The notes: a model not told the origin generated them from the sequence alone. Counted from the first letter of the stretch, positions 5,501 through 13,318 are shown. The stretch: 17,109 bases of DNA from Octopus sinensis (GCF_006345805.1 NW_021825040.1:1-17109), one strand, 5' to 3'. Program-made: numbers and translations.

Positions 5501-6200
5501 TAACATGGTATCTGATGACGAGCGTAAACTAAGACACTCGAGACGTTGTGTTAGAAACTAATAGATTATCATTCTGGAAATGTTTCTAGCTGCACCTACT
5601 TGAAACTTATAATATTCTTTTTTCTTTTTCTTCGTTCTTCGAAAACAAAAGATTTTTCAAATGCTTTTTTACAGATTACAACGGCTTTGAGCTAATCAAA
5701 TCTGAATTTATTGAATAAATTAATATTTTAATTGTTAGCCTAAAGTGACATGAATAGCAGACGCAAAAGTGTGAATAATTTGGACATTAATTTACATTAG
5801 CCAATAATGCATGCATACATAAAAATTAAAATGGAAAAGACATGGCTGTGTTGATAAATAGTTGAATGAAGACATATGTCAGGGTTTCAAATTGCGCTGT
5901 CATCATTTCATTTTTTTTCCTTCTGCAAGGGAATCAAACGTCAAGGAGCTCTACACAAGACAACCGTTTAGCAAAGCTGTTAGAGCCTCGGGTGGAATAG
6001 TTCAAGGTAATTATTCTGATTCTGCACTCAGTACTGATGGAATATTGTTTTTAAACTCAAAGAAAACTATGGATGAGTTGTGGCATCGTCTTCTTAAAAT
6101 ATTATATTTCGGGATGGTTATTTTATTTTCCCAAATAAATACGCCCTGTATACTCGTTCTTCATTTCATATTTATTATTACTCTTATTTTACTGTCCTTT

Positions 6201-6501: not shown

Positions 6502-6556
<55 letters not shown>

Positions 6557-6574
6557 TTAATAATAATAATAATA

Positions 6575-6605
<31 letters not shown>

Positions 6606-6620
6606 TGATAATAATAATGA
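6502..6620. repeat. (TAA)n microsatellite; further tracts at 7016-7073, 7280-7317, 7855-7881, 8318-8336, 8385-8402, 8819-8833
   Basis: Visible runs. Confidence 0.97.
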
Positions 6621-6621
6621 T

Positions 6622-7015
6622 ATAGGAAGCCAGACATAGTCTTAATTGAGAAAGAAAAAAACTATGCTGAATCATAAATATAGCATGCCAAGCTGACAAC
6701 AAGGTATGCGATAAGGAAGAGAGAAAAGTCGAGAGATATGACGTGTTAGCTTGGGAAGTTAAGCAGTCGATGAAATAGGTAGTAGAAATAACAATAATTG
6801 TCGGAGCCCTTGGAACACTGAGAAAAAAATCTCGAGAAGTATGTGGAACAAATAGGGGCTGCAAAAAGGGTGGAGCACTTGCAGAAAACAGCACTGCTTG
6901 GAACCGCTCGTATACTCTGGAAGGTGCTCGAAAAATAAGAGGTGTTACATTAGTTCACTGGCAGTGAACAGCTGACACTGTAGTACATCTCCAGCGTTAG
7001 AAGCTGTGCAAAGGC
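6622..7015 (+). mobile_element. 5'-truncated R4/Dong-clade non-LTR retrotransposon, family 1 (RLE C-terminus plus 3' UTR)
   Basis: RKPDIVLIEKEK/LC*IINIACQADNKVCDKEERKVERYDVLAWEVK..IIVGALGT/NLEKYVEQIG..HLQKTALLGTARILWKVLEK* (stop 6936-6938) is a PD-(D/E)xK-type RLE tail. The 3' UTR has a hairpin GTTCACTG-G-CAGTGAAC at 6953-6969. TAA repeats flank both sides. Confidence 0.88.
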
Positions 7016-7073
<58 letters not shown>

Positions 7074-7279
7074 GGGCTACTCAACCTGAAGAAAATTCTA
7101 ATTGGGCCCCACCTGCAAGGTCATGTGCTGTTTATCTTGAAATGAGATCACCATGTCGCGCACATATGGTTGTATGCATGTGCTGGTGTACCCTTATCAG
7201 ACGGGTAGTCATGATGGGTATATGGGCTTCGTATATTTTACCCCGTGTCACTTTGATGGCATGAACTGCTCTCTCACTC
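7074..7279 (+). mobile_element. TAA-tailed non-coding retroposon 3' end, short copy
   Basis: Near-identical to 7650-7854 with the same 3' end CTCACTC+(AAT)n. Confidence 0.8.
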
Positions 7280-7317
7280 AATAATAATAATAATAATAAT
7301 AATAATATAAAATAATA

Positions 7318-7854
7318 GTACCAGCAGTGGCTCTCATGGCTTCTGATCTTAACTGATTGGAAGTGTTATCATGTACATTGTTTTGTCTTGGTATAAAAGA
7401 TGGGCTACAGCAAATATTCTGCTAATACCACAGATTTGCTTGTCAGTTGTTTGACCTTAACCAGTTGAGCATGTCCTTTAGTGGCTGACGATATGTGCAT
7501 CTCTGATCACGAACAGAAGTAGTGGGGGAGCATCATAGCCATGTGTTGAGAGGGATTCTTTGGGGTTTCAATGATTCACCTCTGGAAACATGGGTGTTTC
7601 ATTCAACATCCTTAAACAACCCTTATTCAGGGACCTTTTGAGCGGGATGGGTTACTCGATCTGAAGAAAATCTAACTGGGCCCCACCTGAAGGTAATGTG
7701 CTGTTTATCTTGATATGAGATCACCATGTCGCGCACAATGGTTGTGATGCATGTGCCTGGTGTACCTTATCAGATGGGTAGTCATGATGGGTATACTGGG
7801 CTTCGTATATTTTACCCCAGTGTCACTTTGATGGCATGCTCTGCTCGCTCACTC
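7318..7854 (+). mobile_element. TAA-tailed non-coding retroposon 3' end, long copy
   Basis: Shares its 3' ~205 bp with 7074-7279 but has a different 5' end; flanked by TAA repeats. Confidence 0.8.
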
Positions 7855-7881
7855 AATAATAATAATAATAATAATAATAAT

Positions 7882-8316
7882 GTGAAAGACCAAAACAATA
7901 AGTTTGCTTATTGATCGACATGAGCATCCCCTGTGATCATAATATCTCAGCGAAAGAGTTGACAAGCTCAGAAAATATAAAGACCTACTCATTGAAATTG
8001 AAAAATGTGGCATCTCAAGGCGGTTACAATACCAGTGATCGTAGGAGCACTAGGAACGATCAAGAAGGGAACCGAAAATTATATGAGAATGATCCCTGGC
8101 TTACCATTCCTGCAGAAGTGCAAAAGATTGTCTTAACTGGTACATCACACGTATTGAGAAGAGCATTGTCGATGTGAGAACTGTTGCTGCTCATGTATTT
8201 TAATTTAACTTAAAAAAAAAAAAAAAAAAAAAATGAACGAACTACTGAGTTTGCCCTAGGAGTCGGGAAGACACTCGGCAAGAAATGTAAGCAAATTTGA
8301 AAGAAGAAAAAAAAAA
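7882..8316 (+). mobile_element. 5'-truncated R4/Dong-clade non-LTR retrotransposon, family 2 (RLE C-terminus plus 3' UTR)
   Basis: With four 1-nt repairs it reads VKDQNNKVCLLIDMSIPCDHNISAKEFDKLRKYKDLLIEIEKMWHLKAVTIPVIVGALGTIKKGTENYMRMIPGLPFLQEVQKIVLTGTSHVLRRALSM* (stop at 8177). Confidence 0.9.
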
Positions 8317-8336
8317 GTAATGATAATAATAATAAT

Positions 8337-8384
8337 GTCGGGAAGACACTCGGCAAGAAATGGAAGCAAATTTGAAAGAAAAAA
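8337..8384 (+). mobile_element. Very short 3'-terminal copy of R4/Dong family 2
   Basis: GTCGGGAAGACACTCGGCAAGAAATGGAAGCAAATTTGAAAGAA repeats 8262-8305 with 1 mismatch, between TAA tracts. Confidence 0.85.
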
Positions 8385-8403
8385 TAAATAATAATAATAA
8401 TAT

Positions 8404-8617
8404 TTTTCTTGTTTCAGTCATTTGATTGTGGCCATGCTGGAGCATCGCCTTTAGTCGAGCAAATCGACCACAGGACTTATTCTTTGTAAGCCTAGTACTT
8501 ATTCTGTCGGTCTCTTTTGCCGAATCGCTAAGTTACGGGGACGTAAACACACCAGTATCGGTTGTCAAGCGATGTTGGGGGGACAAACACAGACACACAA
8601 ACACATACACAGACACA

Positions 8618-8655
<38 letters not shown>

Positions 8656-8819
8656 TATATATATACACACACACAAATACATATATACGACGGGATTCTT
8701 TCAGTTTCCGTCTACCAAATCCACTCACAAGGCTTGCCGAAGGTACCACGCAGTAGGAATGAACCCGGAACCATGTGGTTGGTAAGCAAGTTACTTACCA
8801 CACAGCCACTCGTGCGCCT
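8404..8819 (-). mobile_element. SINE family A, full length, with a 32-bp internal deletion
   Basis: Aligns to 15920-16319; the deletion near 8735 lies between CTT microhomologies; TAA tracts on both sides. Confidence 0.92.
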
Positions 8820-9379
8820 AATAATAATAATAATTAAGAATACCGTATTGAGAAAATAAAGTTATTTAGAAATCGAAATACACTTCTCAGTCGCGGTTCA
8901 AACATTAATTAACAAGAACTTATTGTCCACATCATCGATGGTTGCAAAGAAATGAATCAATAAAACAACTGTTTCATGATAACTTACCATAATAATTATT
9001 AAGCCGAGCAAGAATTCCAGAAGTATTTGAGTACTATGATGTTGTTTCTGACAGAATTTATTATTAACCTTAATGAGTTCATTACTTCATTAAGATTACA
9101 CTCTCAATTTGCTTATCGGTAGGTAAAGTATGATTTAGTTATATTCCTGAGATTGAGTAACTTAAGACAAGCTCTTTAAACTTCGTGGCTCTACTACAGT
9201 TTCTTTGATACAGGCACATGACAAGGATGTATTAACTTAGACGAGGAAAGAAATTAATTCGGCGAAACATTGTGTGAAAACAAAGTATATATAGCATGAT
9301 CCAAAGGACATATTCCTGACACTTTGATTCATCAGAACAAGAAGAATCTCTTCATTAGAGAAAACGCTAAAATCATAGA

Positions 9380-12666: not shown

Positions 12667-12940
12667 TACCTGGTATAATCAATAAGTAACCGGACTGTTG
12701 CAATAGTAACAAAGCTAATGTACGCAGACTAAAGTCGCTTGGCCTAAATTGACCTTAAACTCTGCTGTGCATGCGTACTAAGTTTTAACGTTCTAGCTCA
12801 CTTCCGCTGTTTGCAGCAGTTCTTGGAAGGAAAATGTGTAGCGTGTGATCGTCGCATTGACCATGACAGAGTTGAGCAGAAAGCCTGCGTCAAATTTTGT
12901 CAAAAGCTTGGCGATACCTACTCAGAGGCCTACGCAAAAT
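12667..12940 (+). mobile_element. Mariner (Tc1/mariner) 5' end: TIR-like start, 5' UTR, transposase N-terminus
   Basis: TA|TACCTGGTATAATCAATAAGTAACCGGACT is TIR-like; ATG at 12863; VEQKACVKFCQKLGDTYSEAYAK (cf. EQRxxIKFCxKLG). Confidence 0.8.
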
Positions 12941-13318
12941 TTTCAGAAATTTTTCATCGTTCTCGACACAATCGAGGAGATCTTGTGCAACTGAAACCCG
13001 AATGTCTTTTTGGTCAGATGAGAGCAGTTTTGGCGCAAACTTGGCAGACACGTGTCTCATACACAAATCTTCAGTAATAATGGACTGAACTGAACCGTAA
13101 CTAATCTGCATCACATTTGATAACACACGGATGGGGATTCGACGATTTCCCCTCACAGCTGCATGCACATCTCCGACGTTTTTCCTAGTTTTGCTGGTTA
13201 GAAGTCTCCTAGAACATACGTCAATATCGACATTTTTCGGTCATCTTGGAAACGTCTGAACCACTCGTGCGGCTCATACACTCCTCTCCATACACTTTCT
13301 ACAACTTTAGCCTCTGAG
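12941..13318 (-). pseudogene. Mariner transposase continuation (HTH plus linker), inverted
   Basis: KVYGEECMSR/EWFRRFQD..VHAAVRGNRRIPIRVLSNVMQISYGSVQSIITEDLCMRHVSAKFAPKLLSSDQKDIRVSVAQDLL..ENDEKFLK; FAPKLL is the WVPHEL-equivalent linker; stops before the DDD domain. Confidence 0.9.

Follow-up and report, generated by a model that had tools for sequence, protein, structure and literature searches.

The closest described system is that of the R4-clade Dong elements (Bombyx Dong, DongAg, DongBg, the ostracod Dong1 and Dong2, and the octopus 'Dong-R4'; PMC7998251, PMC3812793, PMC3774820, PMC9115989, PMC13282606). In the portions of these sources that treat them, they encode a reverse transcriptase (RT) followed by a restriction-like endonuclease (RLE), as do the elements analysed here. 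In insects as well as in molluscs and cnidarians, Dong is reported to insert into (TAA)n (PMC7998251, PMC3812793). In an octopus, Dong-R4 elements are reported to be abundant, with recent activity (PMC13282606), and PMC9115989 also gives their abundance in octopus. The (TAA)n target, the 5' truncation, the high octopus copy number and the lack of visible N-terminal zinc fingers are common to Dong and to the elements at our locus.

Three other systems are useful for comparison, as far as the sources describe them. The R1 arrays of the Drosophila 28S genes, with their R2/R1 SIDEs, form the same head-to-tail mixed stacks at a regenerating target, and these SIDEs are rare and have a recognisable R2 ribozyme and R1 3' segments (PMC3414825). 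For the crocodilian SINEU/Tx1-Mar pair the same inference was drawn as is drawn here, from a common target and overlapping age, and there too the insertions are tandem and sequential and the transcription is unexplained; the heads of SINEU derive from snRNA, its partner is of the APE type and its target is a transposon (PMC4494074). The Entamoeba element EhSINE1 is likewise non-coding, 500-600 bp long, of unknown RNA origin and dependent on an R4-type LINE, EhLINE1, with which it has about 70 bp of 3' end in common, and it is not site-specific (PMC2996970). SINE pairs with R4-type LINEs are tabulated in PMC3747384. Within the literature as compared here, which leaves repeat libraries aside, the passages that treat non-coding partners of R4-type LINEs give them for Entamoeba only, with no animal Dong case.

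The present locus lies on an unplaced contig of 17,109 bp in the 2.72-Gb assembly of Octopus sinensis; this contig as a whole was analysed and is called the window below. With a probability of roughly 0.78, we read the array that it holds as a (TAA)n microsatellite in which five retroposon copies, unequal in age, lie in one orientation and were likely inserted by Dong/R4-type proteins: three are the ends of two Dong families (F1 and F2), and two are copies of a 558-bp element likely borrowing a Dong protein. This element differs from the SIDEs in having no detected parent (in an incomplete family catalogue), thousands of copies and a dispersed microsatellite as its home, from SINEU in its head without an Rfam match, its likely RLE-type partner and its (TAA)n target, and from EhSINE1 in being TAA-specific with no significant common tail among eight Dong families. 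TAA targeting by Dong, the abundance of Dong in octopus and mixed stacks at regenerating targets are already known, and the abundant non-coding hitchhiker is the less ordinary part.

Layout of the array

The array spans 6502-8834, where six inserts alternate with seven (AAT)n tracts, as follows.

6502-6622, plus strand: (AAT)n, about 40 units, a few of them variant triplets; the target's upstream portion
6623-7015, plus strand: F1, 393 bp; 5'-truncated 3' end (endonuclease region and 3' UTR) of an older Dong/R4-type family
7016-7073, plus strand: (AAT)19 tract
7074-7279, plus strand: short copy of the non-coding element, 206 bp; element positions 349-558, 5'-truncated, subfamily type B
7280-7317, plus strand: (AAT)n tract
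7318-7854, plus strand: long copy of the non-coding element, 537 bp; element positions 15-558, near full-length, subfamily type A
7855-7881, plus strand: (AAT)9 tract
7882-8317, plus strand: F2, 436 bp; 3' end, truncated at its 5' side, from a young Dong/R4-type family
8318-8336, plus strand: short (AAT)n tract
8337-8386, plus strand: F2 tip, the final 48-50 nt of F2
8387-8402, plus strand: (AAT)5 tract
8403-8818, minus strand: SINE, abundant; A- and B-box-like motifs on reading the sequence
8819-8834, plus strand: (AAT)5 tract; the target's downstream portion

Repeat detection and self-comparison of the contig bear out the order and lengths of the inserts given in an earlier note on this DNA. 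Its remark that the duplicated families share their 3' ends and differ at their 5' ends holds as well: the 3' 206 nt of the two non-coding copies are 91% identical and finish on the identical base, and the F2 tip agrees in 46 of 48 positions with the 3' end of F2. The array copies carry single-base deletions, six in the long non-coding copy and three in F2, which may be assembly errors of the 17-kb unplaced contig, and the F2 copy is without about 40 nt of 3' UTR that its relatives possess. Elsewhere in the window there is a possible short exon at 5930-6010 (plus strand), with an open frame and acceptor- and donor-like flanks; if it is real, the array is intronic and in sense orientation. A decayed frame at 12750-13240 (minus strand) presumably resembles a mariner/Tc1 transposase.

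The SINE had also been taken for a TAA-site insertion, and this we reject. In the random sample its 5' ends are chiefly in ordinary AT-rich DNA: 21 of the 27 sampled lie on other sequence, three on dinucleotide runs and three on loosely AAT/TTA sequence, and none of the 38 sampled 3' ends is in AAT. The array SINE, which is 6-7% from its nearest sampled copies, is a passenger that landed independently in the last tract. A second SINE of about 230 bp with an (ATT)n tail is often found within AAT tracts, sometimes stacked (L131, L134, L018 and others), and may seed Dong targets.

Two Dong-type families and their (TAA)n target

Translated across frameshifts, the F1 and F2 inserts run into the C-terminal endonuclease region of an F2 protein, P0001 (tblastn E-values of 1.5e-4 and 1.3e-22, respectively). 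When the genome was searched with each insert, the best 40 of 462 candidates for F1 and the best 40 of 3,452 for F2 were scored, and these showed identities of 89-91% and 97-98%. Recovery of full-length relatives had been proposed as a check on the nature of these families, and extending 20 matches upstream did recover them, with F2 copies of up to about 5.5 kb. One F2 copy (L098) holds 355 and 886 aa in two overlapping frames, and the best homologues of the F2 protein, about 60% identical to it, have some 1,200 aa in a single protein. Full-length F2 copies encode an RT (Pfam RVT_1, E 1.8e-30). Downstream of it a zinc knuckle can be seen by eye in P0001, followed by a motif that we take to be that of a PD..D..K-type endonuclease. 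The order RT, zinc knuckle, restriction-like endonuclease is present in F2, and for F1 it is read from tblastn only, at 35% identity to F2 over 876 columns. Sequence matches to the F2 protein in the PDB are R2 proteins only. Its homologues include 1,825 at E 1e-50 or better among 7,991 scored, and no named Dong or R4 protein appears among the 120 matches listed.

The match of F1 and F2 to R4/Dong follows from an architecture and a target that are as PMC7998251 describes them in its relevant part. On sequence grounds we therefore assign both inserts as the ends of RT- and RLE-encoding retrotransposons of the Dong/R4 type, by architecture and target rather than by a tree with named references. 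The earlier reading of F1 and F2 as 5'-truncated elements of this kind stands. Five more families have proteins 40-75% identical to that of F2. Unlike Dong as the sources cited above portray it, the families that stack here on one target number at least eight, with proteins 35-75% identical to that of F2, and the 5' UTR of F2 is long (about 1.6 kb) and includes two to three tandem units of about 450 bp each (L093:1976-3100).

The predicted N-terminus of the F2 protein contains a confident helical domain (residues 83-174) with a conserved Trp. Myb/SANT-type DNA-binding domains and the R2 protein are among its best fold matches, all of them weak and below a safe level; these matches include Sap1 (Z 6.8, rmsd 7.4, 86 residues aligned), Zeste (Z 5.6, rmsd 2.8, 67 aligned) and residues 149-215 of an R2 protein (Z 5.0, rmsd 3.8, 67 aligned). 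The Pfam search found no Myb match in this N-terminus, and Foldseek with the domain returned nothing at E 0.001. An HDV-like 5' ribozyme is known for Bombyx Dong from the accounts cited above; here none is established: a loose HDV-like descriptor matched two of four F1 and none of two F2 5' ends, 2 of 60 shuffles were equally good, and Rfam gave no ribozyme match in the F2 5' end. Other features of the 5' ends are a short GGACGT-containing motif common to F1, F2 and a further family, F3, and inverted 5' parts in two F1 copies (L102, L104).

A TAA tail by itself would not make these elements site-specific, and the two sides of the inserts were therefore considered separately. Across 218 loci of eight Dong-type families and the non-coding element, 190 of 203 3' ends run into (AAT)n; these loci were mostly picked around the best matches and thus favour young, long copies. 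By automated call, the 5' junction falls on an AAT or variant triplet run in 22 of the 27 F2 junctions determined (29 examined), in 25/29 for the non-coding element and in 15/29 for F1. Among the 14 F1 junctions not called AAT, several on inspection are broken by later inserts or filler, and some F1 copies have no AAT at all at the 5' junction. Within 200 nt of full-length 5' ends, (AAT)3 is found in all 12 F2 copies, 10 of 14 F1 copies and all 12 of the F3 loci that hold a 5' end (out of 19). In a background sample of 40 evenly placed 10-kb stretches (399.8 kb), (AAT)3 occurs within 60 nt upstream at only 0.95% of positions, so the AAT upstream of the inserts is not a matter of chance; the same sample has 49 (AAT)5 tracts and nine detected family ends, all nine on AAT. 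With AAT on both sides and 5' junction counts well above background, copies do not mostly lack TAA on the 5' side, and the proposed (TAA)n targeting is supported over a mere TAA tail.

Orientation is not random either, since neighbouring elements are on the same strand in 74 of 77 pairs. Three or more elements are stacked at 19 of the 218 loci. Such stacks being common across the genome, the array is typical and ordinary rather than special.

Insertion also seems to create new microsatellite variants, (AAG)n runs among them, because full-length Dong copies have reiterated 5' segments between the AAT tract and the element (16 nt in F1, about 23 nt in F3) and (AAG)n lies at the 5' junction of 6/12 full-length F2 copies. 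Some Dong target sites are supplied by a tRNA-headed repeat with internal (AAT)n (L133, L140, L144, L145, L052, L119).

The 558-bp non-coding element

The earlier note saw several site-specific families competing for the tract. This was right for F1 and F2, which are TAA targeters of the Dong type, but the SINE is not TAA-specific and the third family is not an autonomous LINE: it is a non-coding, non-autonomous retroposon of fixed length. It forms a discrete unit of 558 bp with a fixed start. Its 23-nt 5' core has 6,289 exact matches in the genome, and the four to five copies seen in 400 kb of sampled sequence suggest about 30,000 copies in total, with a wide error. The sequence AATAA lies 1-5 nt upstream of 2,182 of 3,026 core matches on the reverse strand, the one used as the forward count double-counts; this criterion is weak because the element itself begins with AAA. 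Of 32 core matches without AATAA (30 fetched loci), 19 still have (AAT)3 within 60 nt and five more have it beyond repeated 5' units, and no common non-repeat upstream sequence was found among the 32. Among 36 neighbour copies other than the query (81-98% identity), the 15 of full length are all on AAT; the other 21 are 5'-truncated, with 13 on AAT and eight without upstream AAT. At least half of the element's words occur in each of twenty public runs with six organism labels from 11 studies; among the runs listed, none is recorded as RNA.

The longest stop-free frame of the element is 59 aa, and it has no match among 122 LINE proteins. It is SINE-like in being short, in its fixed 3' end, its 5' truncations and its subfamilies. 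The head of a canonical SINE (tRNA, 7SL, 5S or snRNA, with an internal Pol III promoter) is not what it has: no Rfam family matches it apart from one chance match at E 5.9, and on reading the sequence T4 runs occur at three internal places and the region near the start lacks a B box. The HDV-like descriptor found no match in either of two copies. One copy folds with a z of -3.9 against 100 shuffles, yet a structure is not established, since an alignment of 22 copies gives no covariation support (two-sided change in 5 of 161 pairs, covariation term +0.21). We could also set aside a retrozyme or Penelope-dependent element, as a search at E up to 10 gives no hammerhead family and single units are bounded by AAT, and a MITE or solo LTR, as there are no inverted termini and the element has 5'-only truncation and a polarity.

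What the element has in common with the Dong families is its footprint. At its 5' junctions the first 19-139 nt are often present as head-to-tail repeats, and over the element and the Dong families together such repeats take in the first 16-139 nt, with 6/14 F1 and 9/12 F3 copies having them; they could be the work of the same polymerase re-priming at the template 5' end. A Dong protein likely mobilises the 558-bp element in trans, and the question becomes how its RNA would be recognised.

One answer, which we regard as tentative but well worth keeping in view, is that the element is an internally deleted derivative of a Dong family that is unsampled, diverged or dead, or shares such a family's 3' tail, with recognition as stringent as for the R2 SIDEs and the Entamoeba SINEs. 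By eye, the start of the F1 3' UTR matches the 3' part of the element at 19 of 25 positions, but this likeness is not significant (50-62 of 1000 shuffles). Nor do the last 125 nt of the element score better than shuffles against ten 3' UTRs of eight families (best 50/1000), and internal windows score as well as these 125 nt. The comparison covered the 3' ends of eight Dong families plus two singletons and the 5' ends of three, and the element has no match in the 5' ends of F1, F2 and F3. An octopus library is given as holding 51 Dong-R4 consensus families in the part of PMC13282606 that reports it, against the eight and two singletons sampled here, and the hybrid R2/R1 SIDEs are described in PMC3414825 as keeping just six short conserved R1 3' segments, a pattern that our test could miss. 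Against this derivation, LINE coding sequence as a common extension is absent from all 36 neighbour copies and from the 32 atypical 5' junctions, and these 32 junctions also show no longer parent upstream of the 5' end. In four public runs, the best-supported loose ends among the matches listed join no alternative upstream sequence to the 3' part.

The other answer is that the 558-bp element is a parasite of RLE retrotransposons, with neither a LINE-derived nor a Pol III-derived segment, and that its UAA tail or RNA fold is all that several Dong families need to pick it up. Recognition would then be relaxed, as for L1 and Alu, in a clade that is regarded as stringent, and would yield tens of thousands of copies. 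We hold this, too, to be tentative, and less likely than not.

Mobilisation by another enzyme altogether, an APE-type LINE or a Penelope-like element favouring (TAA)n and having only the site in common with Dong, is improbable. Microsatellite targeting is reported for other LINE clades in the pertinent parts of PMC3812793 and PMC4494074, and the second SINE is often in AAT tracts, with 8 of 35 5' ends on TTA-type runs. The polarity of that SINE is opposite to that of Dong; the non-coding element, by contrast, lies in the Dong polarity and shows repeated 5' junctions like those of Dong, and no hammerhead or other Rfam family is found in it. Moreover, every TAA-tailed coding family recovered has an R4-type endonuclease region (F5 and the singletons being seen only in part).

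An older inverted-repeat element (209 exact matches, 29-nt end motif) carries positions 108-274 of the retroposon. It was considered as a parent and turned out to have apparently captured that piece, because a microhomology with the uncaptured form marks where the common part begins (L136). The captured piece is filler in 20/20 of the inverted-repeat loci checked (L125:291-469; L169-L188; L136), which suggests that it was captured during gap repair and that the retroposon is old.

Growth of the array and its meaning

The inserts differ in age when judged by substitutions to their nearest relatives: 6.5% for F1 (43 matches), 1.5% for the short non-coding copy (66), and 0.6% for both the long non-coding copy (50) and F2 (42). 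The short and long copies are also of different subfamily types, common to nine and six of 54 typed copies, respectively. Given these differing ages and types, at least four events built the array, in agreement with its earlier interpretation as a record of successive insertions. That it arose in only one or two events, through template jumping, co-mobilisation in a read-through transcript or local DNA duplication, is very improbable. Template jumping by the R2 RT in vivo is documented in the part of PMC3414825 concerned with it, and F2 and its tip adjoin and are of the same age (TRF reports them as a 75-bp tandem pair), which makes a single event plausible for this pair. The divergence of F1 is ten times that of F2, the two non-coding copies are of different types, and no other top match shares the 5' junction of the window's F1 or F2. 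As for the pair itself, the first 42 nt of the tip are identical to other young F2 copies, and the tip does not have the private base change of the adjoining F2, its own base being that of 25 of 27 other copies and its neighbour's that of none. A template jump may have produced F2 and its 48-bp tip in one event rather than two, and separate insertion fits too.

An assembly chimera of repeat reads is hardly credible: the contig is indeed small (17 kb), unplaced and likely to have indel errors, and no second copy of its flanks is in the assembly, but arrays of the same build are found on chromosome-scale contigs and the right flank of this one is single-copy. A search of the assembly with either flank gave no allelic or empty site.

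For successive insertion by Dong/R4-type proteins, the observed basis is the polarity, the AAT on both sides, the 5' truncation, the several ages and families, and a non-coding family with the same footprint; target duplication is not measurable inside a microsatellite. The steps of nicking, target-primed reverse transcription and mobilisation in trans are taken from the known biology of RLE elements. A Dong protein would bind (TAA)n, probably through its N-terminal three-helix domain, and would nick the TTA strand, with reverse transcription primed at the RNA 3' end; early termination would produce the 5'-truncated copies. Because (AAT)n remains on both sides, each insertion would leave targets for the next, with constant direction. 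The SINE would have arrived in the last tract independently, as at other AT-rich sites.

The array itself follows from published Dong behaviour. More important is the non-coding element, which probably figures already among the unclassified repeats of de novo libraries. Should Dong proteins copy a 558-bp element with no common tail, this would define the minimum RNA for site-specific insertion by an R2-like enzyme, a question that bears on the use of R2-like enzymes for targeted gene insertion. In the large animal genome of the octopus, these elements would make up a microsatellite-targeting guild that expands and regenerates its own target sites, new (AAG)n runs at 5' junctions among them.
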